This document shows, one piece after another, positions 10,309 through 61,535 of a stretch of DNA of 64,000 nucleotides; the stretch's first letter is position 1, and the number at the start of each line of letters is the position of its first letter. The notes below the pieces were generated by a model. The model was not told where the DNA came from, searched no databases, and saw only the letters and a program-made list of their open reading frames with translations. The translations under genes were made by a program, and so were the position numbers. This stretch comes from a virus. The stretch lies in the IMG/VR virus record IMGVR_UViG_3300021141_000001. One strand, 5' to 3'.

Positions 10309-10477
10309 GCATTATAAAGGTGGTACTTATGAAGTAATTACTTTAGCCACTCATACGGAAACAGGAGAAAAGTTAGTAGTTTACAAGTCTATCAACTTTG
10401 GTTCTATTTATGTTAGACCATTAGATATTTGGAACTCAACTTCTGAACATGGTCAAAAAAGATTTGAATTAATATAA
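10277..10477 (+). CDS. DUF1653-family protein
   Basis: YKHYKGGTYEV...HTETGEKLVVY...YVRPL..W...RF. Confidence 0.85.
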   Translation: MNYPLPRQRYKHYKGGTYEVITLATHTETGEKLVVYKSINFGSIYVRPLDIWNSTSEHGQKRFELI

Positions 10478-10701
10478 TGGCAATAGCTTGTAATCCTAGT
10501 GTATTTAATATAAATAACGCTTCAAATTCAACAGCAATTAATGTTGATTCAGATGGTTGTACAGTTATTAGTAAGTTGGTTCTATTAGATGAGAAGACTG
10601 GTAATAAATGGCAAATTAAAATATTAGATGGTGAGTTGATAGCTGAGCCACTTGAATTAGAAGATAAAAGAGAATATAAACTAAATAAAATACTAAAATG
10701 A
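10477..10701 (+). CDS. Small hypothetical protein with C-terminal RxxKI-type tag
   Basis: Ends EDKREYKLNKILK*. Confidence 0.65.
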   Translation: MAIACNPSVFNINNASNSTAINVDSDGCTVISKLVLLDEKTGNKWQIKILDGELIAEPLELEDKREYKLNKILK

Positions 10702-11246
10702 AAAAGTACAAAGTTACCATCTATGGATATGGCGCAGAAGTAACAATTGGTTCTGTTGATGAAGAACAAAAAGCAATTATTAATAACCCTGATAAAGAGT
10801 TATGGGAAATTGTGACTAATGATTTAGAAGATTGGGGTAGTTGGTATGAAATTGATGATCAATATCATCGTTGGGGTGCCGCTGGTACATTTACTATCCT
10901 TATTGAAGATGAGAATGGTGAAGAAGTATATAAAATTGATTCTGATAATTTAAGTGAATTTGATACTGAAGAATTTCAGTTAGTAGATTATGAATACACT
11001 GAGATTGATGAGTCTAAAGACTTATTAATGTGTGCTTCATTTGAAAAAGGTGGATTCTTTGAAGGTGATATTGAAACTGAAGAGTTTGATATTACTAAAC
11101 TTAAAATCACTATTGATGAAGAGATTGGTATTGAAGAATATTACTTTGGTGATATTGTTGCTGGTGTTTACTATGATGATGAGGAAGTAGATAACTACGG
11201 TGGTAGTACTAACGGTAAGTCATTTGATGTTACTAAGAACTTCTAA
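10698..11246 (+). CDS. Highly acidic hypothetical protein
   Basis: ORF with overlapping start/stop; D/E-rich. Confidence 0.7.
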   Translation: MKKYKVTIYGYGAEVTIGSVDEEQKAIINNPDKELWEIVTNDLEDWGSWYEIDDQYHRWGAAGTFTILIEDENGEEVYKIDSDNLSEFDTEEFQLVDYEYTEIDESKDLLMCASFEKGGFFEGDIETEEFDITKLKITIDEEIGIEEYYFGDIVAGVYYDDEEVDNYGGSTNGKSFDVTKNF

Positions 11247-11250
11247 AAAG

Positions 11251-11280
11251 AAAAACCTCAGAGAAATCTGAGGTTTTTTT
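11251..11280. terminator. Bidirectional terminator between convergent genes
   Basis: AAAAACCTCAGA-GAAA-TCTGAGGTTTTTTT. Confidence 0.85.
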
Positions 11281-11287
11281 ATGTTTT

Positions 11288-11767
11288 TTACCAACCAATA
11301 TGCTCATCAAGAGCTTCTTGTATAGCCGCATTATATGCCTTGTCGTGATCGCTATCACCTTCATCATATCCTATTTCATCAGATACTCTTTTTAATTCCT
11401 GATTAAAAGTATCAATAGATTTTTTGAACTCTTCTTTAAGAGTTTTATATGCTTCAGTTTTTTGAATTTTATTCATTACCTCATAATCAATATGTGATTC
11501 ATTAACAATTGACTCTTCCAATTCTTCAATAGCATCAATCTTATCTTTTATTTCAGCAGGACTTAAATCATCCATCTTACGAGTTGTGTTATTGAATTTA
11601 TATCTTGAATTAGCCATATTCTTTTGTTGGTTATCAGTATTAGGCTTGTTTTGTCTATCCATCTTCTTCAATTCTTCTTTTTCAGCATTAGGATTAGCTG
11701 AGAAGTCTTTGAAGTTAACTACTTTTCTATTTACATTGAATGTAGGTGTGTTATCTTTATAAGTCAT
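11288..11767 (-). CDS. Hypothetical late protein (VVNFKDF CTS-like motif; LEE/VNE putative cleavage sites)
   Basis: ORF; TAATATATA on the minus strand at 11788-11796. Confidence 0.7.
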   Translation of the reverse strand: MTYKDNTPTFNVNRKVVNFKDFSANPNAEKEELKKMDRQNKPNTDNQQKNMANSRYKFNNTTRKMDDLSPAEIKDKIDAIEELEESIVNESHIDYEVMNKIQKTEAYKTLKEEFKKSIDTFNQELKRVSDEIGYDEGDSDHDKAYNAAIQEALDEHIGW

Positions 11768-11890
11768 TTTATAGAATTACTTTTTTGTATATATTAATTG
11801 TCAAATCTCATTTCTTTCATTTTAGAGAGCCGGTTTTTTATATATACTTATGATAAAAAACAAAAATCAAAAAGAGTGTATAATAAAGAT

Positions 11891-13231
11891 ATGAGTAAAT
11901 TAGTAACGTTAAACGGAAATAATGATCAAGAACTTCTAAGTTCTATCTTTGACAATGAAATTGTTGTATTTGAAGATATTCAAGGATCAAAAATATGGGT
12001 TAATTGGGATGGTAAAGAATTTACTATTAAACCAAAGTCAATGAGTAGTGAAAAACTTAATCTTGTTGATTTGGCTATTCAAAACTATTATAATCCAGGT
12101 ATTAAATATTTAGAATCATTGGATGTAAGAGTTAAATCATTGTTGAATAAAAAATGGTGGTTTTGTTTTGAGTACTTTCCAGATGAACAACCTGCTAATA
12201 TTGGATATGATAGAGTTCCTAAAAATCATTTAGTTTTAACTGCTATTAATAAAGGTGGTAAGTATGACTTTAGTGTTGAAGAGTTAGATGAGTATGCTAG
12301 ATTATTTGATGTTGATATGTTACCGATTGTTTTTCAAGGTAAACTAACTGAGAGAATGATTGAAGCTATTAAATACTTTATTAATACAAGTGAAGAAGAT
12401 TTAGAGTATGTATTTGGAGAAAAGTCATTTTCATTTTTCTTCTACAGAATATTAAATCCAAGTTCTACTAACTCGTTCTTAATGAAAGATGAAGATTATC
12501 AATCAAATCTTGAGAAACTTATTGTAAGAACTAAAAGTGGTGATATTTCATTTGAAATATTAAATCCTTTATACAGAAGAATAAGTGATAGTAACTCAAC
12601 AGAATTTGTTGAAATTTATACACTTATATTAGTTAACTTCTTAAACTTCTGTCAATCATTTAACTTAGATGAAATTAAATTAAAAGGTGAAAGAAGAGAT
12701 GAAGTTTATATTTATCTAATGTCTAAACTATTCAATGTTTATGTTTCTGAAGTTAAACAAGATTTATTAGACTTTGATTTTGTAGTTCCTGAATTCTTTG
12801 ATAAAGAAAAGTTCAAAATCAATACAGAATTAATTCCTAATAAATTGACCAAAGATTATATTAAAGAATCTGATAAGTTAGAATATATCTTCAAAGTTAT
12901 TCTTGGTTCATTTAACAAGAAAAGAAAGAAAGCAATTGGTGTATTTACTGATAATACAGTTATATTATTTAACACATTTGTCAATGATATTAATGTTTAT
13001 ATTGAAAAGTATCTAAATAAAGTACACGAGGTTGAATTAACAAGAGCTGGTTTGCTTGACTTTGGTGATTTCTTTGAGATTCAATATGATCAAGATGGTG
13101 AAGGTGATGTTTATCCTGATGTTTACTCTGAGTTTGAAAAAGGAACACCTGAAGAAAAGAAGAAAAAAGGTAAAGGTGGTAAAGGTTTACCCGTACCAGA
13201 AGAAGGACCGTCTAAAACTCCTACTAAGTAA
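11891..13231 (+). CDS. RNA-ligase (Rnl2-like nucleotidyltransferase) fold protein lacking the catalytic Lys
   Basis: VVFEDIQGSKIWV where EK(I/L)xGxN is expected; WFCFEYF; MLPIVFQGKL; LEKLIVR; ATG 11891 preferred. Confidence 0.55.
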   Translation: MSKLVTLNGNNDQELLSSIFDNEIVVFEDIQGSKIWVNWDGKEFTIKPKSMSSEKLNLVDLAIQNYYNPGIKYLESLDVRVKSLLNKKWWFCFEYFPDEQPANIGYDRVPKNHLVLTAINKGGKYDFSVEELDEYARLFDVDMLPIVFQGKLTERMIEAIKYFINTSEEDLEYVFGEKSFSFFFYRILNPSSTNSFLMKDEDYQSNLEKLIVRTKSGDISFEILNPLYRRISDSNSTEFVEIYTLILVNFLNFCQSFNLDEIKLKGERRDEVYIYLMSKLFNVYVSEVKQDLLDFDFVVPEFFDKEKFKINTELIPNKLTKDYIKESDKLEYIFKVILGSFNKKRKKAIGVFTDNTVILFNTFVNDINVYIEKYLNKVHEVELTRAGLLDFGDFFEIQYDQDGEGDVYPDVYSEFEKGTPEEKKKKGKGGKGLPVPEEGPSKTPTK

Positions 13232-13443
13232 TGAACTCAATTGATATTAATATGAGAAGTGTTCAAGTTGAAACTAAAACAAGAGCGCTTAGATCTACTT
13301 GGACTCGTGAATTGGCAACTGATTTAGATTCATATCATAATATTGATATTGAAAAGGAACTTTCTCATCTTTTGAAAGAAGAGCTTCGTAAACAACGAGC
13401 TTCTAGTAGAAAAAAATCAATCAATAAAATCTTCCAAAATTAA
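13231..13443 (+). CDS. Mini-protein resembling the gp23 capsid segment that leads into the spine helix, with RxxKI-type tag
   Basis: VQVETKTRALRSTWTRELATDLDSYHNIDIEKELSHLLKEEL resembles T4-like gp23 IEAKSRQLKAAYSIELAQDL..HG.DA..EL..IL..EI (recalled); ends RKKSINKIFQN*. Confidence 0.7.
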   Translation: MNSIDINMRSVQVETKTRALRSTWTRELATDLDSYHNIDIEKELSHLLKEELRKQRASSRKKSINKIFQN

Positions 13444-13474
13444 GAACATAAACTTGGAATTTCATATAATTTAT

Positions 13475-14710
13475 ATGACAGTTTCAAGTGTAATTAAGCT
13501 CAGTGATATAGAGTCCTATTCTTCAATTAAGAAGAATTTAGAGGGTAAGAAATGTAGCTTACAGTTTCTACCGGTTTCGTTAGAAACAATTTCAAAACAA
13601 AAGAATTTTATTTATAAAGGTCAAAAGTTGAAGTCAGCTTATTTGATTGATATTATTCATAATTTAATTCTAAAGTATTATTTCAAAAAAGAAAATAAAT
13701 TTCATTTAATGTCTCCTATTTTAAAGGAGAAGTATGGTTATTTATATAACTACTATATGGATTTTCTTACAGAGAATAAAATTATTATTCTTTTAGCAAA
13801 ACATCAAAAGGGTAAAAGTGCTAGAGTTTATGCCATTAATGAATATATTCTCAGAGGAACTATCATTCGATTTAATAATAGTGATAGGACTTTACTTAAA
13901 AAGTATAAAGCAAAGGTAGCTCAGATAGTAGAAGATAAATTAGAAAACTCACTCATTGATAATGATATAAAGATTAAGTTAGTCGATGATTTATTTAAGA
14001 TTCAAATTGAATTTGATAGGTCAATATTTTATTTAGACTCCTTAAAAAGTGATGATATTGATATTTATAATAGAAATAAATATTCAGTTGAGTGTATTAA
14101 TGATAAACACATATTTTATCATTTTGATAGTTATGGTCGCATGCATACTAACTTTACTATATTAAAGTCTTTTATTAGAAAGAATTGTCTATTAATTAAT
14201 GGTGAAGAAACTCATGAAATAGATATTAAAAACTCACAACCTCTTTTCCTAACTAAATTGATTCAAGATTCCGGTACTAAATGGGTTAATCAAGAAGAAT
14301 TTGAACTATTCAAAAATCTTACTATTAATGGTACTTACTATAACTATATAATGGATCACCTTAAAACAAAAGATAGAGGTATGGTTAAAGAATTAACATA
14401 TAAAGTACTATTTGGTAGAAATGGTGTTAATAGTAAAGCCGATAAGATATTTAGTAGTCTTTTTCCAACTATACATTATTTTATTAAATTGTATAAAAAA
14501 GAACACGGAGATTATAAAGTATTGGCTTATGAATTACAAAAGTCTGAAAGTAATCTTATTTTTAATAAAATTATTAGACAAATAATGACACTTTATCCAG
14601 AAATAAATTTAGTTACTGTACATGACAGTATAATTATACCAAAGTCTTATAAAGATTCGGTTTGGGCAATTTTTCAAACCAAACTTTATGAAGAATTCGG
14701 ACTTATTTAA
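13475..14710 (+). CDS. Family-A polymerase-like (palm motifs A/B/C) protein without exonuclease domains
   Basis: GRMHT, EIDIKNSQP (motif A), R..VK..TYKVLFG (motif B), LQKSES, VTVHDSII (motif C). Confidence 0.6.
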   Translation: MTVSSVIKLSDIESYSSIKKNLEGKKCSLQFLPVSLETISKQKNFIYKGQKLKSAYLIDIIHNLILKYYFKKENKFHLMSPILKEKYGYLYNYYMDFLTENKIIILLAKHQKGKSARVYAINEYILRGTIIRFNNSDRTLLKKYKAKVAQIVEDKLENSLIDNDIKIKLVDDLFKIQIEFDRSIFYLDSLKSDDIDIYNRNKYSVECINDKHIFYHFDSYGRMHTNFTILKSFIRKNCLLINGEETHEIDIKNSQPLFLTKLIQDSGTKWVNQEEFELFKNLTINGTYYNYIMDHLKTKDRGMVKELTYKVLFGRNGVNSKADKIFSSLFPTIHYFIKLYKKEHGDYKVLAYELQKSESNLIFNKIIRQIMTLYPEINLVTVHDSIIIPKSYKDSVWAIFQTKLYEEFGLI

Positions 14711-14735
14711 GAAATAAAAACTTATATATAACTTT

Positions 14736-14885
14736 ATGAAACAATATCATTTAAAATCTAAAATTTCTGAAGAATCTTTTGCCAAATTTGTAGCATCATC
14801 TTTAGAAGAAGCCATTGAGTACTTTTCAAGATTAAAAAAATTATCTAAAAAAGACTTACTTAATATCTACACCGTTACAGATTAA
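14736..14885 (+). CDS. Small hypothetical protein (49 aa, MKQYHLKSK...YTVTD)
   Basis: Manual translation; fills the intergenic gap after TTATATATA. Confidence 0.55.
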   Translation: MKQYHLKSKISEESFAKFVASSLEEAIEYFSRLKKLSKKDLLNIYTVTD

Positions 14886-14910
14886 GTATATTATTTTTAA
14901 TATATACTTT

Positions 14911-15450
14911 ATGACAGGATTGGAACACAAGGATGCCTCATTTATTCTACTATCATCTACACGTTTAGATGATATGATATCTATTTTATATGCCAAAGAA
15001 TATCAAGTATTACCCATTAAAGGTTACTACAAGGGTCAATATGAAGACTCTGTAATGGCTTATGGTAAAGTAGATAATGATACTTTAAGAAAAGATGTTC
15101 TTTTTCTTTTAAATCATTTCCATGAAGAATGTGCTATTATTAAATACACTGAAGAAACTAATGCTAAAAAGATATTTAAAGATGGATCTGAGATACCTAT
15201 GGGTATTGTAATGTATAATACAGATTCTGATAATATGTCTTATTTACATAATGGTACATCATTCTCATTTGTTGAATCTAAAAGATATTGGAGACCAACT
15301 AAAAAAGAAGATTTCAGAGTTGGTATGCTAGTTGAATATTTCAATAATAATAAGTGGTTTGAAAAGCTTGTTGAGAATCCTAATGATGAATATGAAAAAC
15401 TTTATAAACTACTTATAAAGTATGATAAAGTTAGAGTTCCTTCTAAATAA
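14911..15450 (+). CDS. Hypothetical protein
   Basis: ORF; TAATATATA at 14898-14906. Confidence 0.7.
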   Translation: MTGLEHKDASFILLSSTRLDDMISILYAKEYQVLPIKGYYKGQYEDSVMAYGKVDNDTLRKDVLFLLNHFHEECAIIKYTEETNAKKIFKDGSEIPMGIVMYNTDSDNMSYLHNGTSFSFVESKRYWRPTKKEDFRVGMLVEYFNNNKWFEKLVENPNDEYEKLYKLLIKYDKVRVPSK

Positions 15451-16222
15451 TTTCAAACCAATTTATAATCTTAGAATAATTAGGAGTTTCTTTTAAGAAA
15501 TATCTCATGTCATTTGGACAGTTAATTACATTTAATCCATTCTCAGTTTTCTGAGCATTTCTCATCATAATAATCTTATTTGATTTGATATAAGGAGAAG
15601 GTATAACATTCATACCATTTATATTTCCATCCACAACACCATCTTTTATATCAGACATCATCATTCCATTAGACATCAGAAGATATTTATAAGCATCTAA
15701 ACCAACTATAATAGTATTGGCTGGTCCTGTTCTTCCGGTTGATGATATTAGATTACTGGTCATCATTAATCTTGTTATAACTTTTCTTGATGTTGATGAC
15801 TCATTTTCATAATCTGTTAGATTAGGATCTTTTTGAATAGAAACATTCAAATTTTGAGGAATATTCATTGACTTTGATGTTAATGATTCTAATGTCATCA
15901 TAACATCATTGTAAATATCAAATAAGTCTAAATAGGTTTTACCTTGAACATTAATAGAGTTAAGTTTAGGAGTTATAGTCATCATATAACTTTCGTTATC
16001 TAATGGATTTGAAAACGGTTCTCTATTTTTGAACTCTTCAACTTTATCATCTATAATAGCATCAATCGCAAGTTCACGATTCTTTCTTTTTAATTCTCTT
16101 TGATATTCCTCATTGGATGATTCATCCCAATCCATAAAAGTCATTACACCTTGTGGCAAAGAAGGCTTTGTAGATTCTACATAGTTACAGATTTTCTCTA
16201 AATCTTTAGATGAAATTATCAT
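15443..16222 (-). CDS. Protein containing a gp23 capsid A-domain-like region and an internal RxxAI tag
   Basis: SRKVITRLMMTSNLISSTGRTGPANTIIV...GNINGMNVIPSPYIKSNKIIMMRN aligns by eye with this phage's MCP QRKLITKIAHASNYIATEGRVGPAQYLIT...GSIGDISIYVDPYMRYNDNRIVLGRK. Confidence 0.7.
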   Translation of the reverse strand: MIISSKDLEKICNYVESTKPSLPQGVMTFMDWDESSNEEYQRELKRKNRELAIDAIIDDKVEEFKNREPFSNPLDNESYMMTITPKLNSINVQGKTYLDLFDIYNDVMMTLESLTSKSMNIPQNLNVSIQKDPNLTDYENESSTSRKVITRLMMTSNLISSTGRTGPANTIIVGLDAYKYLLMSNGMMMSDIKDGVVDGNINGMNVIPSPYIKSNKIIMMRNAQKTENGLNVINCPNDMRYFLKETPNYSKIINWFEII

Positions 16223-23514: not shown

Positions 23515-23916
23515 ATGGAGAAAAAAGTAGGAAGAATTGAAAATATTTCTTTTCCGGAACTTAAAATAGAAAAGATAAAGGCAAAAGTAGATACTGGTGC
23601 TTATGGAGTTGCTTTACATGTTGATAGTATAAAACTTGAAGATGGTAAGTTATATTTTACAGTTGGTAATGAAGAGTTTTCTTATAATAAATTCAAAACT
23701 ATTATAGTTAAAAATTCATTTGGTAAAGTTCAGAAAAGATTTTCTATATTTACTAAATTAACAATTGGTGATTCAATATATAAATTTTATGTATCTTTAA
23801 CAGATAGAAAAAAAATGAGATATCCTGTTTTAATAGGTAGAAGATTCCTTTACAAATTCAACTATTTAGTTGATGTAACAAAAAAGAATATAAATGATAG
23901 AAATAAAAAGGTGTAA
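23515..23916 (+). CDS. RimK-associated retropepsin-like putative protease
   Basis: AKVDTGA, VKNSFG, LTDRKKMRYPVLIGRRFL. Confidence 0.85.
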   Translation: MEKKVGRIENISFPELKIEKIKAKVDTGAYGVALHVDSIKLEDGKLYFTVGNEEFSYNKFKTIIVKNSFGKVQKRFSIFTKLTIGDSIYKFYVSLTDRKKMRYPVLIGRRFLYKFNYLVDVTKKNINDRNKKV

Positions 23917-24424
23917 TTATATTACCGGAAATCCTTCAGACGTTTCTTATGCTGTTAAGAAAATAGTTGACTTCTTAGATATGGAGGGTAGAAATCCGGT
24001 CTTATTTTGTAAACCAAGAAGTTCAAACTCTACTGCTACTACACTTAAATATTTAATGGAACCTAAAATAAACTTCAATAATATTGAAGATTTTACAGAA
24101 GTATTAAATAATAAAGGTAATCTATTTAGAGTTGATTTATTAGTATTCGATTTTTGGCATTTGAGTGTTTCTTCAATAATAGAATATAAACAAGTTATTG
24201 ATAAATTAAATATTGATTATATAATATTAGCCAAAGAGTATCATTATAAATCATCTGAGGATGTTAATGATTATCATGTTAAAATTGAATCTAGAGAATT
24301 ATATCACAGTGAATACTCAATAACTGATAAAATATCTGGATGGACTTCAAACTTAGAAAATTTATCAAAATCTTACATTCGTAATAAAAAAATTGACGAT
24401 ATTTTCAATAAAAATGATGAATAA
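23894..24424 (+). CDS. Possible degenerate RecA/DnaB-like domain with C-terminal RxxKI tag
   Basis: NYITGNPSDVS (no Walker A), VDLLVFDF (Walker-B-like), ends YIRNKKIDDIFNKNDE*. Confidence 0.45.
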   Translation: MIEIKRCNYITGNPSDVSYAVKKIVDFLDMEGRNPVLFCKPRSSNSTATTLKYLMEPKINFNNIEDFTEVLNNKGNLFRVDLLVFDFWHLSVSSIIEYKQVIDKLNIDYIILAKEYHYKSSEDVNDYHVKIESRELYHSEYSITDKISGWTSNLENLSKSYIRNKKIDDIFNKNDE

Positions 24425-28003: not shown

Positions 28004-28519
28004 TTATTTAGTCTTACTTGAAATCCAAGCACTGGCTAGTATAGAAATAGTTAAGGCCATTGCGCCAGTAAAAACTCCCCAGAAATTATTATTTATAACA
28101 CCACTAACAATCATAAATATTGACAAAATTGGACCTCCAAGTCCAAAAATATATGAAAAGAATTTCAATAATTTCTCTTTAATATAGTCACCAAGACCTT
28201 CTTGAACTGCCTCAAGTTCTTTATCTTTATTTCTCATTATTATTTCTCTATCTAACCACTCTTTTACTAATACTGGATTTGTTAAATCTTCTAAAGTACA
28301 TCCAAACTTTTCAGTTAATTTTTCTAACTCTTCAGAGACTTTTAATTTATCCAAACTATTCATTTTATTTATTATGTCAGTAGTCTCATGCTTAATTTTC
28401 ACATCTTCTTCTTTGTTTAAGTGTAAATCCTCAACATTATATTGATATAAATCTTTATCATGAAAATGTAGATGAGTAGTGTTCTCATTAAATTGTTTAA
28501 AGGTCTTTATTGATTTCAT
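28004..28519 (-). CDS. CTS-leader protein with two C-terminal TM helices
   Basis: MKSIKTFKQFNE; VQE|GLGDYIKEKL; hydrophobic C-terminus. Confidence 0.7.
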   Translation of the reverse strand: MKSIKTFKQFNENTTHLHFHDKDLYQYNVEDLHLNKEEDVKIKHETTDIINKMNSLDKLKVSEELEKLTEKFGCTLEDLTNPVLVKEWLDREIIMRNKDKELEAVQEGLGDYIKEKLLKFFSYIFGLGGPILSIFMIVSGVINNNFWGVFTGAMALTISILASAWISSKTK

Positions 28520-31299: not shown

Positions 31300-31776
31300 A
31301 TGTTTGATAAAAATTTCAATATTATACATGGTGATAGAATTTCTGGTAGAACAGAGTTTCTATTTAATATTTCTAATAGTTTTAATAAAGTAGGATTAAA
31401 ACTATTTTTCTTATCATGTACAGGTGATATTGAGACTAAAGATAGATTTAATGATATCTTTGATGATTATAGAATTATAAACACATTTGATGAAGTCAAT
31501 AATTATAAAGTAATAGAAGTTGTAAAAGAACTATCTGAAAAAAGAAAGTATAATTTTCTAATTATAGATGATATTGATTACTTGCCAAAATCTTGTGTTG
31601 ATTTATTATCAGAAATAGATACTTCTAAAATTGTAACTTGTTTAAGTGACAATTATAAAAAACTACCTGAAGAATCTAATTTTTATAATATAAGTGATGT
31701 TAGTGATTTATCTAATATTGATGAAATTGTTAAAAAAATAATTAGAGACCAAAAAATAAATTCAGTATTAAAATGA
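31300..31776 (+). CDS. Degenerate RecA/DnaB-like P-loop domain with C-terminal RxxKI tag
   Basis: NIIHGDRISGRTEFL (Walker A with K to R), FLIIDDID (Walker B), ends IIRDQKINSVLK*. Confidence 0.55.
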   Translation: MFDKNFNIIHGDRISGRTEFLFNISNSFNKVGLKLFFLSCTGDIETKDRFNDIFDDYRIINTFDEVNNYKVIEVVKELSEKRKYNFLIIDDIDYLPKSCVDLLSEIDTSKIVTCLSDNYKKLPEESNFYNISDVSDLSNIDEIVKKIIRDQKINSVLK

Positions 31777-35620: not shown

Positions 35621-35669
35621 CAAAATAGATTTTACTTTTTAATATATACAGAAAAATAAAATATTTTTT

Positions 35670-39021: not shown

Positions 39022-40689
39022 ATGTCATTAAAAACGGATCTTGCCAAATACAAGCCTAGAAAGGAACAAAAAGAAGCTCTTAATTTTATAGAAGCTGAAT
39101 ATCAAAAGAATAAATTGAATAAATTTTTCTTACTAAATCTTCCAGTTGGTTCTGGTAAATCTCACTTAGCTTTAATGATTGCTGATTGGTATAAAAAGAA
39201 TGTTAATAAACTTGCTAAAGTTGATATCATTACTAATAGTAAACTTCTTCAAGACCAATATTCAAACGAATATGAATCTATTTCTGATTTGAAAGGTAAA
39301 GATAATTATGAATGTGAACAATACTCTTGTTCTTGTGCTCAAGGTGCTGAATTTAATCGTTTAAATAAAACATCTTGTGAATCTTGTCCTTATACTTCTG
39401 CTAAAGAATCTTTTATCAGTGGTAATATATCACTTACTAATTTTTACTTATACATTCTTTATGCTATCTATAATCCAAAATTATTAGAAAGTAGAGATTC
39501 AAGAGTTCTTATTGTCGATGAAGCTCATGAGTTTGATGATGTTATGTCTGACTTTATCACTATTAAAGTAACTGAAAATATGGTTAAAAGATTTAAGTTT
39601 GCTGATGAGTATTCTATTATGAAACAACTTAAAGCCGTTACTTCTATTTCAAATTATGTTGACTTTTTGAAATATCTTAATGGTGAAGTTTTAACGACAC
39701 TTGAATCTATGGAAAAAGGAATGTCAACTTCTCCAAGAAATGTTAAACAAGATAAAAGAGACTTAAAAATTAATAAACTTATTGGTGGTAAAAACTCTGA
39801 TGTTAAAACCATGCAATTGGCTACTGATTTAAGACAGTTACAATTAAAAATTGAAATCTTCTTAAAAGAGTATAAAGAAAATCCTAACAACTGGGTATTA
39901 GAAACTTATTATAATGAGAAGTTAAAACAAAAAGAATTGTCTTTGGAGCCTATTTGGGCTTATGATTACTTAGATAAGTATGTTTTTAGTAATTATGATA
40001 TGGTTATTCTTATGTCAGGTACTATTTTAGATAAGAACCTATTCTGTCAGTTAAATGGTTTAGACGTAGCTAAAGCTGTGTACTACTCAATTCGTTCACC
40101 GTTTAATCCTAAGAATCGACCTATCTTTTATATGCCTTTAGGTAAGATGTCTTATAAATCTAAAGAAGAAACATTTAAGAAGTATATTCCTTATATTAAG
40201 AAGTTATTAGATAAGTATAAAAATAAGAAAGGTATCATTCATACTAACTCATTTGAATTAGCTAAATGGATTGAACAATCAATTCGAGATCCAAGATTGA
40301 TATTTCACGACTCTTCTAATAAAGATGAAATGTTGAAACTTCATAAGGAATCAGAAGAACCAACAGTTATTGTTTCTCCTTCTATGGATACTGGAGTTTC
40401 TTTTGATAATGATGATGCTCGCTTTCAAATTATTGCTAAAGTTCCTTATCCTTCTTTAGGTTCTCAAAAGAATAAATTGAGACAATCAAATAATCCTGAT
40501 TGGTATGCTTGGAAAACAGTTTCTGGTTTAGTTCAGATGTCAGGTAGACCAGTTCGTTCAGAAATTGATTATGCTGATACTATTATCTTAGATGGTTCAT
40601 TTGGTGATGTTATTAAACACAGTTCACACTTTATACCGGATTGGATTCAAGAGGCTATTAAAAAGATAAACGTTAACATTAACGCATAA
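39022..40689 (+). CDS. DinG/Rad3-like SF2 helicase
   Basis: PRKEQ (Q motif), LPVGSGKS, LKGKDNYEC with Cys cluster, IVDEAH, MSGT, KVPYP, QMSGRPVR. Confidence 0.9.
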   Translation: MSLKTDLAKYKPRKEQKEALNFIEAEYQKNKLNKFFLLNLPVGSGKSHLALMIADWYKKNVNKLAKVDIITNSKLLQDQYSNEYESISDLKGKDNYECEQYSCSCAQGAEFNRLNKTSCESCPYTSAKESFISGNISLTNFYLYILYAIYNPKLLESRDSRVLIVDEAHEFDDVMSDFITIKVTENMVKRFKFADEYSIMKQLKAVTSISNYVDFLKYLNGEVLTTLESMEKGMSTSPRNVKQDKRDLKINKLIGGKNSDVKTMQLATDLRQLQLKIEIFLKEYKENPNNWVLETYYNEKLKQKELSLEPIWAYDYLDKYVFSNYDMVILMSGTILDKNLFCQLNGLDVAKAVYYSIRSPFNPKNRPIFYMPLGKMSYKSKEETFKKYIPYIKKLLDKYKNKKGIIHTNSFELAKWIEQSIRDPRLIFHDSSNKDEMLKLHKESEEPTVIVSPSMDTGVSFDNDDARFQIIAKVPYPSLGSQKNKLRQSNNPDWYAWKTVSGLVQMSGRPVRSEIDYADTIILDGSFGDVIKHSSHFIPDWIQEAIKKINVNINA

Positions 40690-41402: not shown

Positions 41403-42191
41403 ATGAAGATTCAAAGATATACTGACTATACACTACAAAATGAAATGGCTGAAGAATTCTTAAACTCATTTGATAAAATGGTTAAAGAATCAGATGGTGG
41501 TACATCATATCAAAAAGTCGCTAAAAAAGTAATTTCAGACTTAAAGTTAAATGTTAGTTTAGTTGCCACATTTGGTGCTGGTATTGGTGCTCTTTATCCT
41601 GTTGTTCAAGGATTAATGGAAAATATGAATCTTGATTCATTTATTCTTACACCTGAATCAATTGTTCTATTAACATTATCTTCTGTTACTATAGCATATT
41701 TACAAGAGAAAAAATTCAAATCTGCTGAAGAAGAAGACCAACTAACAAAAGATTCTAAATCTATGTTAGAAGAGTTAAAAATGAAAGGATTTGGAAATGG
41801 TATAGTTAAAAAACTAATCAAAAGTCTAGAATCTGTTAAAAACATATTTTTGGTAATTGGTAAACATATAGGTGCTGTTATTGGTAGTATTGTGGATATG
41901 TTTGCTTATACTTCACTTTTAATTCCTTTATTGAATGGCGTTATGACTATAATACATAAATATGATTTGAATCTAGAAACACTTCCTCAAAATTTTCTAG
42001 GATTGGCTGTTGGTGTTGGTACTATTATAGCTAAACATGGTATTGTAGAAATTATAAACAGAATTAAAAATAAATTTCCTATTAATCCAAAAGAAGTTCT
42101 AGATGATATAGAAACTCCTGCTATTCAAAGATTTGCTACGTTTGGAGACTCAGAAGAGAAACAAGACGGTGATTTAATCAAGGAGCAATAA
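41403..42191 (+). CDS. CTS-leader multi-TM membrane protein
   Basis: MKIQRYTDY..QNE; about four hydrophobic segments; TAATATATA at 41387-95. Confidence 0.7.
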   Translation: MKIQRYTDYTLQNEMAEEFLNSFDKMVKESDGGTSYQKVAKKVISDLKLNVSLVATFGAGIGALYPVVQGLMENMNLDSFILTPESIVLLTLSSVTIAYLQEKKFKSAEEEDQLTKDSKSMLEELKMKGFGNGIVKKLIKSLESVKNIFLVIGKHIGAVIGSIVDMFAYTSLLIPLLNGVMTIIHKYDLNLETLPQNFLGLAVGVGTIIAKHGIVEIINRIKNKFPINPKEVLDDIETPAIQRFATFGDSEEKQDGDLIKEQ

Positions 42192-43611: not shown

Positions 43612-44586
43612 ATGGCTAAAAAAGTTAGAGATGATGAAGAATTCGATGATATAGAAAATGAATTCGATGAAGAATCAACTGAACAAGAATCAGTACCAGA
43701 AGATGACTCAGATGATAATGATTCTGATGATGAAGAAGGTGGTGGTTTAGGTCTTGATGATGATGATGAGAATATAGACATCATTATTGAGATTGATGAA
43801 GATGATCTTGATATCATTGAACCTGAATCGGAAGTAAAAACAGAAGAACCAGACCCAGATGAAGTTGTTCTTTCTAAACATAAATTAGAAGGTAAACACT
43901 CATTAAAATATGATTCTATTTTCAAAGGTAAAAAAGAAGATCCATTAGATGAAGAAGATGGTACAAGTTCTTTTGACACATATCATAAAGATACAATTGA
44001 AGTAGATAGATCTTCTAACTACTATTTTGAATCAATTGATAATGAAAAATACATAAGGTCTAAACAAGTAAAAGAAAGAGTATATGAAGTTCTTGAAAAA
44101 AATACATCAATTAATTTCTTGAACAATCGTAGAAAACCTTCTAGAACAGACTTTAATCAATACTACAATATTTTGAAAGATAATCTTCAAAGTGAAAGTT
44201 TTACTAATGTAGAATTGTTTAATGAATTAGCTGTTTATTTTTCTGATAATTTATTCAACATGTTTAAATTATTGGATAAAAAATGGAGAAATCTTATAAT
44301 TTTAGAATTACAAGACCATATTGGTAAAAATAATAATTCTAAAGAAATTACAAATAGAAATATTTATGAAGGTACTGAAATTGAATTTCAATGGCTTGAT
44401 GAATTTACAAACCATATGATTACAATAACTGGTGATGTGGTTGAAGTAGATTATGAAAATTCTAAGTTTAAAGTAAACTCATATGAAAGAATTTATGAAG
44501 TTAAATTAGAAATGATTAGTAAAATACTTAATAACACCAAGTTTAAGTATAATTTAAATAAACTTAATAATATTGATTTTCTATAA
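43612..44586 (+). CDS. Hypothetical protein with a long acidic N-terminus
   Basis: ORF; first ~120 aa are D/E-rich. Confidence 0.7.
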   Translation: MAKKVRDDEEFDDIENEFDEESTEQESVPEDDSDDNDSDDEEGGGLGLDDDDENIDIIIEIDEDDLDIIEPESEVKTEEPDPDEVVLSKHKLEGKHSLKYDSIFKGKKEDPLDEEDGTSSFDTYHKDTIEVDRSSNYYFESIDNEKYIRSKQVKERVYEVLEKNTSINFLNNRRKPSRTDFNQYYNILKDNLQSESFTNVELFNELAVYFSDNLFNMFKLLDKKWRNLIILELQDHIGKNNNSKEITNRNIYEGTEIEFQWLDEFTNHMITITGDVVEVDYENSKFKVNSYERIYEVKLEMISKILNNTKFKYNLNKLNNIDFL

Positions 44587-44685
44587 TTTTTCTGAGCAGT
44601 ATAAAAAACCTCAAAAAATTAAAATTTTAGATTTTTCAGTAAAAAAATGAACCAATATATAAAAGACAAAAAAATTAAATAAAAT

Positions 44686-47232: not shown

Positions 47233-47248
47233 TCACTAAATAATATTG

Positions 47249-47279
47249 AAAAGGGATTGTGTGAACAATCCCTTTTTTT
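47249..47279 (+). terminator. Intrinsic terminator after nrdA
   Basis: AAAAGGGATTGT-GTGA-ACAATCCCTTTTTTT. Confidence 0.85.
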
Positions 47280-47308
47280 ATTATATAAATAAAAAGAAAA
47301 TTATTTTT

Positions 47309-47953
47309 ATGAATAAAATTGAGATAGAAGAAAAATTAGATAGAGGTTGGGTAATTGAGTTGATATCTAATGGATATACAACTTATGATATAGTTAATGA
47401 ATATGAATTAAATGAAGATACTATTTTAGAATGTACAGATCTTTTAGATAAAGAAGTACTTATACAAGGATTGAGTTTTTCTGAAGATTTTATAAACAAG
47501 GCACTAGAATTGGAATATTTTAACAATGAAGATATCTATGAATTGAATATGACTACCTATTCTAATTTATCTGATGAATTTATTACTGAATATAAAGAAA
47601 ATATAAATTGGGATAGAATGATACTTTATATCTCTACTCAATCAGATTCATTTGATAACCATACTAAAGTTATTGAAGATAAAAATCTTTGGTCTATTAT
47701 TAGTGCCAATGATTTATCAATTGATTTTATTAGACAATGGAAAGACAAATTAGATTGGTCTTACTTATCAATGGTTAAGTCATTTACTGATGAAGAAAAG
47801 TTAGAATTTGATAACTATATTATGACACCTGTTCAACAAGAACTACCTGGAGACTTAATAAATACTGATGATTTGAAAGTTACTGATAAAATGTCTGATG
47901 AAGAATTAGAAAACTTAATTGAGGAAATTTCAAAACATTTTGGAAAGTATTAG
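47309..47953 (+). CDS. Tryptophan-repeat-like hypothetical protein
   Basis: LS..FI..(Y/W)K..(I/L)(N/D)W repeats; ATG 47309 preferred. Confidence 0.6.
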   Translation: MNKIEIEEKLDRGWVIELISNGYTTYDIVNEYELNEDTILECTDLLDKEVLIQGLSFSEDFINKALELEYFNNEDIYELNMTTYSNLSDEFITEYKENINWDRMILYISTQSDSFDNHTKVIEDKNLWSIISANDLSIDFIRQWKDKLDWSYLSMVKSFTDEEKLEFDNYIMTPVQQELPGDLINTDDLKVTDKMSDEELENLIEEISKHFGKY

Positions 47954-52317: not shown

Positions 52318-52713
52318 ATGTCTATTATAATAAGAAACTCACAATTAAATGATGAAACAATTGCCGCTTTAAATAAATTAGTTGATGTTGATATTAACGC
52401 TTCGGTGGCATTTAAATTAATGAGAATTATTAAAGAAATATCTTCTATTGTTGATGATAAGAATAAGATGGAACAAATGATTATTAGTAAACACTCTGAA
52501 AAGGATGAAGAAGGTAAAGTTGTTCAAGCTAAGGATGACCAAGGTAATCCAATAGGTATTAATATTAAAAATATAGAATCATTTTCTGCTGATATGGAGG
52601 ATTTTATGAGTGTTGAGAATGAGATAGGATATGATAAAATTAATTTTGAAGATTTAAATTTACAAACTGCTAGAGTCAAAGATTTAATGAAATTAGAATT
52701 TTTATTCAATTAA
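52318..52713 (+). CDS. Hypothetical helical phage protein
   Basis: ORF only. Confidence 0.65.
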   Translation: MSIIIRNSQLNDETIAALNKLVDVDINASVAFKLMRIIKEISSIVDDKNKMEQMIISKHSEKDEEGKVVQAKDDQGNPIGINIKNIESFSADMEDFMSVENEIGYDKINFEDLNLQTARVKDLMKLEFLFN

Positions 52714-58224: not shown

Positions 58225-58347
58225 ATGGCGGTTTGGGAAAATATACCTGAGTGTAAAAAAGAGTCTATAATTAAATCTTTATATAGATTTGATAGGATTC
58301 AAAAAAGAAAGAAAACAATCAAAAGATTATTTAATGTTAATAGGTAA
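58225..58347 (+). CDS. 40-aa peptide ending in an RxxTI-type tag (MAVWENIPECKKESIIKSLYRFDRIQKRKKTIKRLFNVNR)
   Basis: Manual translation; overlaps the start of the next gene; carries the shared tag. Confidence 0.5.
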   Translation: MAVWENIPECKKESIIKSLYRFDRIQKRKKTIKRLFNVNR

Positions 58348-58597
58348 AAAGTCTGATAATTTAATAGAACCAGGTTATGTTTATGCTCCTTATATACCAA
58401 TGACTACGGCTCAGACTGTAGTTGGATATGGTTCAAAAAATGTAAGTAGAAAGAGAAAAATTAATAAGATATTTGATTTAGGTTTAGATGTTAAAGATGA
58501 ATTCTCACCAAGTAAATCAATTATGAGTAGATACTCTAAAAAGATTATAAATAATAAATTTTACGGAACTATAGAAATAAAAAATCCCACTTATTAA
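58334..58597 (+). CDS. Mini-protein resembling the C-terminal segment of a gp23-like capsid protein, with an inserted RxxKI tag
   Basis: MLIGKKSDNLIEPGYVYAPYIPM...FSPSKSIMSRYSKKIINNKFYGTIEI resembles gp23 G.KG....AG..YAPY...F.P..G.(K/M)TRY; ATG 58334 preferred. Confidence 0.7.
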   Translation: MLIGKKSDNLIEPGYVYAPYIPMTTAQTVVGYGSKNVSRKRKINKIFDLGLDVKDEFSPSKSIMSRYSKKIINNKFYGTIEIKNPTY

Positions 58598-58607
58598 GTG
58601 GGATTTT
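58579..58607. terminator. Bidirectional terminator
   Basis: AAAAAATCCCACTT-ATT-AAGTGGGATTTT. Confidence 0.75.
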
Positions 58608-58609
58608 AA

Positions 58610-58912
58610 TTATAATTCATTGAACTTTTTTAAATGATTAAGACTTTCTGCTAAGAATTTCTCACCATCTAAATTCTTATTAGAAGGCTTATTAGGTTTT
58701 TTAGTATTGATTGTAGGATCTGCTAAGAATTTCTCACCATCTAAATTTTTGTTAGAAGGCTTAGTAACTTTCATAGAAACATCAGCATCACTTAAAGATT
58801 TATCAGCATCTAATTTCTTTTTTGATGCTGGTTTACTATGATCTTGTTTCTTTATATCTTTTGATAAATTTGATAACTTATCATTAATTGGATGTTTCTT
58901 AATGTGTTTCAT
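58610..58912 (-). CDS. Basic low-complexity protein with duplicated KPSNKNLDGEKFLA and a C-terminal CTS-like motif
   Basis: Direct repeat in DNA; ends LAESLNHLKKFNEL*. Confidence 0.65.
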   Translation of the reverse strand: MKHIKKHPINDKLSNLSKDIKKQDHSKPASKKKLDADKSLSDADVSMKVTKPSNKNLDGEKFLADPTINTKKPNKPSNKNLDGEKFLAESLNHLKKFNEL

Positions 58913-58913
58913 C

Positions 58914-59507
58914 TTATTTAGTGAATTTTAGTTTATATACTGTTTGATATATTAAAACTAATATATCGTCAATTATATTTGAAAATTCTGTATCTTCTTC
59001 ATTGAAGCAATTTTTTCTTTCTGATTTGATAAATTTACCCAAATCCATAAAATATTCAATTGGATCTTTTGAGTTAGACTCTTTAGTGTCTATTATATCA
59101 TAACCTTCTATTAGACCATATTGTGCTTGATATATTTCAATTAGTGTATCAAGTGAGTCTAATACTCCACCTTCTCCTTCATCATCTCCTTCATAGTATT
59201 CTTGTAGTGCTATATGTTTAGCATGAGATCCCATATCTCCTTTAACTTGTAGGTGATAAACGTGAGCCATTTGTCTTGATTCAAATATTTTAGATATAAA
59301 TTTTATAACATCATTAGAACCTGGTGTTTCAGAATTTTCTGACTTTTCTTCTTCAGTCTCATTATCTTCAACTTCTTCAGTTTTAGATTGACCAGCCATT
59401 AACTTAATCAATTCTTCTTTTGACATATCTTCGTAATTACCAGGAAGATTTGCTTCTGCCTCGAATATCTTCTTTTTAACTGGTTTAAAATCTGAAAACT
59501 TTTTCAT
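58914..59507 (-). CDS. Ferritin/Dps-like four-helix protein (DUF5856-like) with CTS leader
   Basis: AHVYHLQVKG..SHAKHIALQEYYE, D.LIE.YQ..YG, YKLKF; leader MKKFSDF..IFE. Confidence 0.7.
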   Translation of the reverse strand: MKKFSDFKPVKKKIFEAEANLPGNYEDMSKEELIKLMAGQSKTEEVEDNETEEEKSENSETPGSNDVIKFISKIFESRQMAHVYHLQVKGDMGSHAKHIALQEYYEGDDEGEGGVLDSLDTLIEIYQAQYGLIEGYDIIDTKESNSKDPIEYFMDLGKFIKSERKNCFNEEDTEFSNIIDDILVLIYQTVYKLKFTK

Positions 59508-59550
59508 ATTATTCTTTTTAATTTTATAATTTATATATTAATTTCTAAGA

Positions 59551-59952
59551 TCACTTTAATGTATCTAAGAAATTATCATAATCAAATTTGATTTTTTCTT
59601 TTTTGAATTGAGTTACCATATCATTGGCAATCTCCATTCTATTTTCTTTATCTTTAACTTTTTTTAGAATATCAATAATACCTGAAACCATTTGATAGTC
59701 GTTGTTATCTTTTAATTCAGTCTTTATTTTTGACTTTGACTCAAATATAATAGACTCTTCTATTCTTTTTTCAGTTTGGTCTATATTGTCTATAACATAT
59801 TCGGAACCATATTCTAAAGAAGATAAAATAGAATCTGCTAAATATCCAGCCTCTCCTTCATTTTCAGCTGGTATGATTAACTCAACTTGAGCATCTACTT
59901 TATAGAAACTTTCATTTTCTACTTCTTCTAATATTTTAGTAAATTTTTTCAT
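59551..59952 (-). CDS. CTS-leader hypothetical protein
   Basis: MKKFTKILEE; IEE/IFE putative cleavage sites. Confidence 0.65.
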   Translation of the reverse strand: MKKFTKILEEVENESFYKVDAQVELIIPAENEGEAGYLADSILSSLEYGSEYVIDNIDQTEKRIEESIIFESKSKIKTELKDNNDYQMVSGIIDILKKVKDKENRMEIANDMVTQFKKEKIKFDYDNFLDTLK

Positions 59953-59953
59953 T

Positions 59954-61060
59954 TTATTTAGTTTTTATTTTCCCAATTTTATTCATAAGATATCTTCCGT
60001 TTTCATTAAACTCTTTACTCCAATACTCAACAAATTGTTTACAATTCATTTTCTTAAAAGTGTTTATTGGTATAACTGATTTACCTTTTTGTCCTTTTAA
60101 CTCACTCTCATATACTGATACCCACATATCTTTAAGTTTATCAGCAATTTCGTGTTCGTCTTTAGCTCCAACTAATAAAGCATTACCCATATCTCTCAAA
60201 TTATAATGAGATGATATTGTGTTAATTAATGAGTTGTAAAATTCATCAGCATTAAAATATTTCATTTTTTCAGATATTTTGTATATCTTAAACTCTTTTA
60301 AATCTTTATTTGGATACTTATCAATAAAGTAATTGATTTCTTGAATGTTAGCATTCATCTCTTGTCTTTCACTAAAGTAGATGTATGATAAAAAATCTGA
60401 AGTCCATTTATACCAAATTTCTTTAGGAAACTTCCATTTGTTTTTCTCAGCATAGGTAAGAGCAGTATTGAAAGATCTATCATAAATAGGCTTTCTATAT
60501 TCACCTCTTTTAGCACCTTTAATAGTTCTTTTATAATGTTCGTAACAGTGATTTAACTCGTGATATAAAGTTGAGTTTATACCATCTATTAATTCTTGTT
60601 TATTTTCAGGATTATTAATGTCAAAGTTTCTTTTATCTACATCAACACCAACACTTAATTGAATTATTAGACCAACATCAGCAATTTTTCTAGCTGGTTT
60701 AACTATTTTAGAGTAGTTTTTCCAGTTTTTATTTCCAAAACCTGAAGCATATCCACCAATAGCAACGTGATTAGGGTAATCATACATTCCTTTAAATCTT
60801 GATGTAGTCATTTTTTTGAACTCCAATATCAATTCAAATCCAACAACTGGAAAATCAGGATATAAATTTTTATCTATAAATCTAGCTAAGTCTCTGTATT
60901 TAATTTCTACTTTTTCATCTAGTATATTTTCAGTAGATTCTAAAAAATCTAAGAATTTATAATATGTCTTTTTTTGTAAGACATCAGCAAACATAATACT
61001 TGACCTAGATAAGCCATGAGCCTCGTTTATTACGAATTGTTTAAAATTAAAAATCCCCAT
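59954..61060 (-). CDS. CTS-leader protein with HExxH zincin-like motif
   Basis: MGIFNFKQFVINE; LYHELNHCYE...QEMNA; TAATATATA at 61066-74 (minus). Confidence 0.65.
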   Translation of the reverse strand: MGIFNFKQFVINEAHGLSRSSIMFADVLQKKTYYKFLDFLESTENILDEKVEIKYRDLARFIDKNLYPDFPVVGFELILEFKKMTTSRFKGMYDYPNHVAIGGYASGFGNKNWKNYSKIVKPARKIADVGLIIQLSVGVDVDKRNFDINNPENKQELIDGINSTLYHELNHCYEHYKRTIKGAKRGEYRKPIYDRSFNTALTYAEKNKWKFPKEIWYKWTSDFLSYIYFSERQEMNANIQEINYFIDKYPNKDLKEFKIYKISEKMKYFNADEFYNSLINTISSHYNLRDMGNALLVGAKDEHEIADKLKDMWVSVYESELKGQKGKSVIPINTFKKMNCKQFVEYWSKEFNENGRYLMNKIGKIKTK

Positions 61061-61106
61061 AAGTCTATATATTAAAAACCTATGGGGATTTATTGAATTA
61101 TTTATA

Positions 61107-61535
61107 TTAGTTCAAGATTTCAGTTATCTTTTTCTCTCTATATGATCTAACATCGATATCAGTCTCAACAGCTTCATAGAATGATAGTTTAACCATATTC
61201 GTATATTTTTGAGTTTCTTCTTCATTAGCCATTGGGTGTAATCTGTTTTCATAAGACTCCCATCTATTTTTTGATTCTGGCTTACCATATTTTTGATTAA
61301 GAGATTCATTGAATTTATCATATTCATCAATTTCTACTGTTAGAATATCTTCCATATCATATGAGTATTCTGATATTGAACACTGCTTAAATTCTTTAGC
61401 ATTTAATTCATTCACCTTTCTATTAGCATCTTCTTTAGAAAATACAATTAGACTTGGACTACCACCTTCGGATTCACTGTAGATATTATCATCATATTCA
61501 AATCCTTTTCTTAAAATTACATACGCCTTTTCCAT
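61107..61535 (-). CDS. Hypothetical protein with C-terminal RxxKI tag
   Basis: Ends SYREKKITEILN*. Confidence 0.65.
   Translation of the reverse strand: MEKAYVILRKGFEYDDNIYSESEGGSPSLIVFSKEDANRKVNELNAKEFKQCSISEYSYDMEDILTVEIDEYDKFNESLNQKYGKPESKNRWESYENRLHPMANEEETQKYTNMVKLSFYEAVETDIDVRSYREKKITEILN

Follow-up and report, generated by a model that had tools for sequence, protein, structure and literature searches.

A portable C-terminal peptide tag marks a class of small, unrelated proteins in a lineage of huge phages

The 64,000-nucleotide stretch of viral DNA in IMG/VR record IMGVR_UViG_3300021141_000001 (29% G+C; "the window" below means this whole stretch) raises a question of protein sorting: why do at least eight small proteins with no other resemblance share the short peptide R-x-x-K-I-x-x-I-(L/F), usually at the extreme C-terminus? 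A sequence-only reading of the window had proposed that the peptide is a modular amphipathic docking helix or degron that sends diverse cargo to one partner such as a protease, a scaffold or a host complex. We find that the peptide is a selected, portable short linear motif that defines a class of proteins. We infer that it is probably a docking label and that one common reader handles the whole class.

Genome-scale analysis used four complete relatives and a near-identical 85-kb fragment, with genes called by a simple purpose-made caller; C-termini are fixed by stop codons, and start codons are less certain, as are therefore N-termini and promoter distances. The nearest public relatives, all uncultured huge phages, have major capsid proteins that are 69% (LR745206.1, 635 kb, and LR756502.1), 52% (LR756504.1), 51% (LR756501.1, 735 kb) and 36% (LR756500.1) identical to that of the window. 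More distant relatives include the Prevotella Lak phages and phages of Tenacibaculum and Chryseobacterium, and because of this set of relatives a Bacteroidetes host is likely for the window phage.

The strict pattern R-x-x-K-[IL]-x-x-[IVL]-[LF] has six matches in a six-frame translation of the window. Five of them are in real genes and four lie 1–5 residues from the stop. Shuffles that preserve composition gave 0.3 strict matches per window at any position and 0.01 at the C-terminus (maximum 1 in 200 shuffles). Of the 910 LR745206.1 proteins, 73 end in the strict pattern, compared with 0.12 in shuffles (maximum 2), and the full range of counts for tagged C-termini in this genome is 73–122. A scoring matrix built from these 73 tags found 107 C-terminal and 22 internal copies in that genome (shuffles 0–2); about one in ten of the phage's proteins thus ends in the nine-residue, predicted helical tag. 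The R-type tag is single-copy and 83% C-terminal, the 107 of 129 matrix matches lying within 6 residues of the C-terminus. The logo of the 73 copies reads [K]-x-x-[ILV]-R-[DEN]-x-K-[IL]-x-x-[ILV]-[LF], followed by 0–6 residues and the stop. The doubt that the sequence-only reading itself had raised, that such endings are a chance product of a K/I/N-rich, AT-rich proteome, can appeal to the AT-rich codons of the tag residues. Yet the shuffles, which keep composition, come nowhere near the 4 and 73 C-terminal matches observed, and equally AT-rich relatives carry 0 or 1 strict matches. The probability of a chance origin is negligible.

The nine tag codons vary from copy to copy and the flanking DNA has no common features. 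Synonymous codons at the invariant positions match genome-wide proportions in the 73 copies of LR745206.1. The signal therefore sits in the protein, and a DNA or RNA element at gene ends is ruled out. When the tail was removed from the LR745206.1 carriers, 118 bodies fell into 117 BLAST clusters, so that the carriers are otherwise unrelated, as had been claimed. Within single families, in contrast to this diversity of bodies, the tag is held fixed. In homologues drawn from metagenomes, R150, K153, I154, N155 and L158 of the protein at 31300-31776 are invariant across 17 sequences, down to 47% identity, and R163, K165, K166 and I167 of the protein at 23894-24424 are invariant across 26, down to 48% identity.

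These results also bear on common descent, in which the tag would be the remnant of one exploded gene family or of a recombining 3' cassette and would have no common reader. In LR756504.1, a tag variant, R-K-x-[IK]-I-x-x-L-[LI], is found on ~80–110 proteins, some in tandem paralogue arrays in which the residues upstream of the tag are conserved (the largest clusters have 7, 5 and 4 members), and in LR745206.1 tagged genes adjoin each other in 35 pairs where 16 are expected. Such arrays are what common descent would leave. It does not account for the near absence of clustering among bodies, either in LR745206.1 or among the proteins of LR756501.1 that carry a different tag (41 bodies in 40 clusters; see below), nor for carriers that differ in fold, for tags inserted into a conserved helicase and a capsid-like piece, or for tag DNA that is not conserved. 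Invariant tag columns in two families need ongoing selection. We regard descent without a reader as very unlikely.

All eight peptides that the sequence-only reading had listed are present in the window at the positions given, and five of them have strong matrix scores (18.0–25.9). These are the tags at 24380..24406 (+) in the 176-residue protein 23894-24424, with five residues after the tag (score 25.9); at 31744..31770 (+) in the 158-residue protein 31300-31776, which adjoins thyA (23.3); at 58448..58474 (+), inserted within a Gp23-like C-terminal piece, 58289/58334-58597 (20.2); at 10669..10695 (+) in the 74-residue protein 10477-10701, with one residue after the tag (19.9); and at 61113..61139 (-) in the 142-residue orphan protein 61107-61535, also with one residue after the tag (18.0). 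The pattern is retained in the LR745206.1 orthologue of 10477-10701, at 47% identity.

The remaining three peptides depart from the pattern at the fourth position. The tag at 13408..13434 (+), at the end of the 70-residue protein 13231-13443, has S in place of K (score 5.1), and R-K-K-T-I-K-R-L-F at 58306..58332 (+), followed by four residues in the 40-residue open reading frame 58225-58347, has T (7.3). On score alone both are poor, but their LR745206.1 counterparts keep the same peptides: two homologues of 13231-13443 retain S-I-N-K-I-F despite indels in the body, and a 50-residue open reading frame with the same tag (255215-255367) lies at the place matching 58225-58347. The third, R-E-L-A-I-D-A-I-I at 16052..16078 (-), lies internally, towards the N-terminus of the 259-residue protein 15443-16222, and is degenerate, its fourth residue being A. 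By itself it is too weak to count (1.0); the copy at the same place in the LR745206.1 orthologue scores 14.7. A further copy was absent from the earlier list: at 39757..39783 (+), a tag-like insertion of 11–13 residues lies inside the 555-residue XPD/ResIII-type helicase 39022-40689 (13.4, and 17.0 in LR745206.1). In an alignment, the LR745206.1 orthologue has this insertion too, whereas three more distant helicases lack it.

Three of the carriers resemble parts of the major capsid protein. The body of 13231-13443 matches positions 132-182 of the Pfam Gp23 profile (E 2.5e-11), 15443-16222 matches positions 185-305 (E 6e-4), and 58289-58597 matches positions 302-354 with ~25 extra residues around the tag; aligned to the phage's own capsid protein, the last has a 22-residue insertion at the tag, and its LR745206.1 counterpart is likewise tagged. 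None is a close copy of the phage's own capsid protein, and the same set is found in LR745206.1. The three mini-proteins (13231-13443 +, 15443-16222 -, 58289-58597 +) cover consecutive, nearly non-overlapping parts of the profile.

Two other carriers were modelled with AlphaFold2. The model of 31300-31776 (predicted local distance difference test score, pLDDT, 84) matched type II thymidine kinases in Foldseek (E 1e-4); the protein has R for the P-loop K and is without the lasso domain. That of 23894-24424 (pLDDT 79) matched KaiC and RecA (E 3e-5), and the protein has no P-loop lysine. Because both P-loop-like carriers are without this lysine, "dead ATPase domains" is a fair label for them, and the cargo named by the sequence-only reading, capsid fragments and dead ATPases, is borne out. 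In both models the tag is at the far end of a long C-terminal helix where confidence drops: it forms the end of helix 138-158 in the first and lies inside helix 154-174, with pLDDT below 50 there, in the second. With a hydrophobic moment of 1.1–1.65 at 100 degrees, the tag is thus predicted to be the exposed end of a C-terminal amphipathic helix, and the proposal of a modular amphipathic helix on unrelated carriers is supported. A likeness of the R, D, K, I, L spacing to the catalytic loop of protein kinases was rejected because the catalytic N is not conserved in the tag.

A basic, amphipathic helix at the C-terminus could also serve to target proteins to the inner membrane, in the manner of MinD or FtsA, and R-K-K-T-I-K-R-L-F presumably resembles the tail of E. 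coli MinD. Lipid binding would not need the fixed, invariant R and K, and it is disfavoured by acidic residues, which follow the R in 49 of the 73 copies and are common (D or E) at the sixth and seventh positions. The helix has only three hydrophobic positions, and its counterpart in a sister lineage is strongly acidic. Membrane targeting is therefore most improbable.

What kind of proteins carry the tag? In LR745206.1 they have a median length of 108 residues, compared with 161 for untagged proteins, and 5% have a membrane-like segment. A homologue in LR756504.1 was found for 3% of the tagged proteins and 11% of size-matched untagged ones. Their genes also differ in promoter. The promoter-like motif TAATATATA (T-A-A-T-A-T-A-T-A) lies ~28–37 nucleotides before the starts of the capsid, peptidase, second polymerase piece, reductase and many more genes (window sites include 4243-4251, 6463-6471, 35640-35648 and 44654-44662) and occurs ≤100 nucleotides upstream of 27 of the 71 called window genes. 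Within 60 nucleotides upstream, the motif was found for 2–4% of tagged genes, 13–20% of untagged genes and 30–41% of genes whose products start with the N-terminal leader MKYLKxFE, and these percentages hold in each of three genomes. The nearest upstream promoter-like motif of tagged genes tends to be TAnnTTTG rather than TAATATATA (odds ratio 8, p 2e-14). We take TAnnTTTG to be the Bacteroidetes sigma-A -7 element. Since tagged genes are not driven by the phage's own TAATATATA promoter, their promoter motifs suggest that the class is probably non-late, that is, early and read by host RNA polymerase.

The leader, M-K-Y-L-K-x-F-E-x-F, is similar to the capsid targeting sequence of T4. All four lineages retain it: it starts ~70–105 proteins per genome in three relatives and 25 proteins in the remaining one, and it is enriched behind TAATATATA. 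In the window it is found at 33169-33711, 40739-41272, 28004-28519 (-), 62071-62331 and 35670-38060. The last of these is the second piece of a split DNA polymerase, which oddly starts with a similar leader. Tag and leader avoid each other: two LR745206.1 proteins have both where 14.3 are expected (p 3e-5), in agreement with the earlier statement that the two do not co-occur.

The sister lineages differ in their labels. In LR756501.1, pattern and matrix scans of its proteins found no R-type tag. Its proteins instead carry D-P-Y-G-E-E-x-W, with 107 copies in 94 of 971 proteins (shuffles 0.08), at loci spanning L047-L083 (for example L047:11317-11850 (-) and L049:4455-6983 (-)). This motif is found C-terminally (41 copies), near the N-terminus (22) and internally (44), with up to four copies per protein. 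The genes of the C-terminally tagged proteins have the same TAATATATA depletion as R-tagged genes. Only five of these proteins have a homologue in the R-tag genomes: a dead copy of the prohead protease, two capsid pieces, a scaffold-repeat piece and a piece of a 1295-residue protein. The protease copy (L047:11317-11850 (-)) is a small prohead protease domain in which the catalytic H and S are changed to Y and P, and its C-terminus bears the LR756501.1 motif. The LR745206.1 counterpart of the scaffold-repeat mini-protein bears the R-tag instead. Thus, the labels appear interchangeable between lineages. Two chemically unrelated peptides on the same kind of protein argue for a label whose reading partner is not the same, or has diverged, from one lineage to the next, and against an intrinsic role of the helix such as lipid binding.

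LR756500.1 has neither the R-type tag nor D-P-Y-G-E-E-x-W. About 16 of its proteins, mostly 250–280 residues long and many with the N-terminal leader, end in N-A-D-D-F-G-[FL]-[FLI]-D-N (for example 13446-14282, 14298-15077 and 198758-199531); this ending probably marks one paralogue family and not a tag on unrelated proteins. The same genome has an extra small copy of the prohead protease domain at 154840-155244 (-).

The identity of the shared mini-copies raises the possibility of capsid or prohead targeting, in which the helix would dock cargo to the scaffold or the inner capsid surface, in the manner of the T4 capsid targeting sequence, the HK97 protease tail or the cargo peptides of encapsulins, and tagged proteins would be packaged. 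When tagged proteins are compared across lineages, recognisable relatives turn up for partial copies alone, namely those of the capsid protein, the prohead protease, the scaffold repeats and the large unannotated 1295-residue protein. In addition, a capsid-protein helix of the phage itself aligns with the tag of 13231-13443, and basic amphipathic terminal helices resemble the coat-binding ends of scaffolding proteins. The window has T4-like head genes. One of them (2075-4198) joins a prohead protease domain (Peptidase_S77) to a long scaffold-like region with repeats of ~fourteen residues at about residues 257-453, and another (4280-5983) encodes a major capsid protein of the Gp23 family. Copies of these scaffold-like repeats occur in small tagged proteins of two relatives. 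Nevertheless, the promoter found upstream of virion genes, those for capsid and protease among them, is depleted 5-fold in tagged genes, and a leader like the T4 capsid targeting sequence is already present on ~100 proteins, is kept in four lineages and excludes the C-terminal tag. The tag wholly differs between lineages even though their capsid proteins are 51–52% identical to the window's and the protease-scaffold protein is still 46% identical between the window and LR756504.1. The tagged protease copy is without both catalytic residues, and no conserved protease site lies beside the tag. We consider capsid targeting rather improbable; the promoter class of the carriers and the separate, lineage-conserved leader likewise disfavour the scaffold named as a partner in the sequence-only reading.

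The behavior of D-P-Y-G-E-E-x-W suggests yet another possibility, namely that tags associate with one another, or with one abundant multivalent partner, and so concentrate the class in a condensate or other assembly, for example a factory for replication or takeover, rather than feed it to a processing enzyme. A motif placed N-terminally, internally or C-terminally, in up to four copies per protein, would suit a multivalent scaffold, a replication or repair helicase has an internal copy of the R-type tag, and the tagged genes outnumber what a simple stoichiometric hub could serve. Against this, the R-type tag is single-copy and mostly C-terminal, and a helix of 9–13 residues is short for stable association. 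The sister motif, with its P and G, cannot form the same type of helix, so there is no common tag–tag chemistry. We give self-association little credence, about as much as capsid targeting.

The helicase copy also brings to mind the tails by which proteins bind sliding clamps, of the PIP-box-like or T4 gp45-binding type. The I-x-x-I-[LF] spacing near the C-terminus resembles [ILM]-x-x-[FY]-[FY], and the polymerase has Q-I-M-S-Y-F 19 residues from its end. The tag itself has no Q and has an invariant R and K, both polymerase pieces end without a tag, and the carriers are orphan, probably early proteins rather than parts of the replisome. No gp45- or beta-type clamp or clamp loader was found in four genomes: PF02916, PF02768 and PF13177 had no match in the four relatives and PF09116 none in LR745206.1 and the 85-kb nearest record, although a very divergent or host clamp could escape these searches. 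Three unannotated window open reading frames of the replication module considered as clamps (41403-42191, 43612-44586 and 47246-47953) matched nothing among PHROGs and PDB sequences, nor did the first and last in the ESM Atlas. A clamp-binding tail is extremely unlikely. The 131-residue protein at 52318-52713 (phrog_1401, function unknown) ends in L-E-F-L-F-N, which presumably resembles the acidic-aromatic clamp-binding tails of T4 gp33, gp55 and gp43.

If the tag is a docking label, the common reader would dock the C-terminal helix of small, soluble, unrelated, fast-evolving and leader-less early proteins. Candidates were sought among genes that follow the distribution of the R-type tag. A phyletic screen gave 59 untagged LR745206.1 genes with a counterpart in LR756504.1 but none in LR756501.1. 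PrkA/YeaG (AAA+ Ser kinase family) and DUF444/YeaH were at the top of this set; in LR745206.1 the two lie at 480112-483419 (L030:112-3416) with a 46-residue tagged open reading frame between them, and PrkA is present in both R-tag relatives and absent from the two without the R-tag. Among at least 128 IMG/VR contigs with PrkA, tags occur in the 20-kb flanks only at 83–86% identity, and ~60 other PrkA loci have no tag within 20-kb flanks. PrkA with DUF444 is therefore disfavoured as reader, since PrkA is widespread in viral contigs without a nearby tag. Hsp70 was rejected: all three genomes with a tag system encode it and the remaining one does not, but neighbourhood support was found in one genome only, and the motif has no contiguous hydrophobic stretch as preferred by DnaK. 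Of other candidate partners, the MoxR-type ATPase PF07726 had no match above cut-off, and the bacterial microcompartment (BMC) shell PF00936 no match, in the four relatives.

The 59 genes also include two for ClpP and one for ClpS. LR745206.1 and LR756504.1, the genomes with the R-type tag and its variant, both encode a ClpC without Clp_N, ClpP, ClpS and Hsp70. LR756501.1, with D-P-Y-G-E-E-x-W, has a ClpC with Clp_N and Hsp70 and neither ClpP nor ClpS; LR756500.1, with no tag, has ClpP and none of ClpC-type protein, ClpS or Hsp70. Tagged open reading frames directly adjoin ClpC in two genomes, and one ClpP gene has a tagged open reading frame upstream. The phage ClpP's own C-terminal helix has tag-like spacing. 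Among 80 IMG/VR loci with a related ClpC, R-type tags occur in the flanks only at ≥65% identity. As a clue to the reader, this neighbourhood and phyletic pattern, drawn from four genomes and few neighbours, is suggestive. The phage Clp machinery (a ClpC-type unfoldase without N-domain, two or three ClpP, and ClpS) is thus circumstantially the best-fitting reader and the leading candidate, albeit a doubtful one. With Clp as reader, the tag would recruit early proteins for timed removal or, alternatively, would deliver whatever the early proteins have bound. A host hub and an unrecognised phage protein, taken together, are more likely than any single named candidate.

Several observations weigh against a docking label with one reader, or against Clp in that role. 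No test in this analysis revealed a binding partner. The Clp pattern comes from four genomes, one of which, LR756501.1, has a tag system without ClpP, and 44 IMG/VR ClpC loci (≤63% identity) have no tag in their 20-kb flanks. A degron anchored by its terminal carboxylate is at odds with the conserved internal copies and the 0–6 variable residues after the motif, which makes the degron of the sequence-only reading, in the strict sense, a poor fit. More than 100 different ligands would compete for any stoichiometric hub. The assignment to an early class rests on promoter-like motifs and crude gene calls, and the whole-genome figures stem from relatives with major capsid proteins 69% and 52% identical to that of the window. 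A broader reading would be a lineage-specific, proteome-wide address code, in which the C-terminal label denotes the early, fast-evolving class and the N-terminal leader a later class, and in which dead or partial copies of the capsid protein, protease, scaffold and P-loop enzymes of the phage itself act as decoys or adaptors that are handed, with their bound partners, to a phage Clp-type machine. Such partners might be host sensors of virion proteins, and the system would then be a phage counterpart of F-box adaptor families. We consider this code unlikely as a whole.

The tag can be compared with known systems in which a short peptide sorts proteins. Clp AAA+ degrons and adaptor tails (ssrA, MuA-type, SspB/MecA-type) are likewise short terminal peptides on unrelated proteins read by one machine, and, as for the C-motif degrons of ssrA and ClpX, a cognate machine is encoded, with ClpC, ClpP and ClpS in both R-tag relatives. 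Unlike ssrA-type degrons, the R-tag is predicted to be helical, has an invariant R and K and tolerates residues after it and internal placement; unlike in adaptor delivery, the phage ClpC is without the N-domain that normally takes adaptors, and a role in degradation would be an analogy drawn from sequence. The T4 capsid targeting sequence is also a portable label of about ten residues on unrelated phage proteins, but it is N-terminal, is followed by a prohead-protease site and is found on late proteins, whereas the R-tag is C-terminal and its logo has no conserved E-containing [LI]-x-E-type site on either side. The promoter motif of the capsid gene precedes 2–4% of tagged genes.

Cargo peptides of BMCs and encapsulins are alike in that a short terminal amphipathic helix or peptide on diverse cargo is bound by one shell protein. 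The BMC encapsulation peptides are terminal helices of ~15–20 residues, comparable to the predicted helices 138-158 and 154-174, and the variant R-K-x-I-I-E-D-L-L resembles, we assume, the PduD peptide. They differ in that no BMC shell gene was found in the four relatives and that the carriers lie outside the virion-gene promoter class. PIP-box and T4/RB69 clamp tails share a hydrophobic triad (i, i+3, i+4) near the C-terminus and serve several clients, but they read Q-x-x-[ILM]-x-x-[FY]-[FY] or are acidic-aromatic (T4 type), whereas the R-tag ends in I/L/V and L/F, the polymerase is untagged and one helicase has an internal copy only.

Thus, the tag falls outside every family compared. By analogy, it may work most like the shared docking tails of effector families, namely the F-box-like tails of poxvirus ANK/PRANC proteins, the C-terminal signals of Legionella Dot/Icm effectors and oomycete RXLR, whose known readers are Skp1, the coupling protein and a host uptake route, respectively. 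These too combine, across a large share of the proteome, fast-evolving, unrelated bodies with one short terminal label that differs by lineage; there is no homology to the tag. In the literature searched, we found no description of the R-type tag or of such tags in huge phages, and no mention of D-P-Y-G-E-E-x-W in a phage context. New here are the replacement motif of the 735-kb phage, placed at any position in a protein; the mini-copy carriers shared across labels; the promoter contrast in three genomes; the mutual exclusion of tag and leader; and the negative results for clamp, MoxR, PrkA and shell proteins.

Elsewhere, the window has a DNA-metabolism block (Fpg, ThyA, a family B polymerase, XPD-type and DnaB-type helicases, a ribonucleotide reductase, a Ro60-like protein, methylases and glycosyltransferases). 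The polymerase is split into 34094-35620 (exonuclease and the start of the polymerase domain) and 35670-38060 (the rest), with 49 nucleotides, including a promoter-like motif, between the two genes.

Most genes of huge phages are orphans that offer no handle for study, and a label shared by one protein in ten places such orphans in a single functional class. The tag peptide is a single experimental entry point to the machine that handles them. If this machine is a protease or unfoldase, the phage would encode a system that degrades early phage proteins, or host targets, in a regulated way, and the peptide would be a ready-made portable tag for engineering. The unrelated peptide of the sister lineage on the same class of proteins, the same kinds of mini-copies under either label, and the complementary class with the N-terminal leader suggest a general principle of sorting, one in which label and reader co-evolve.

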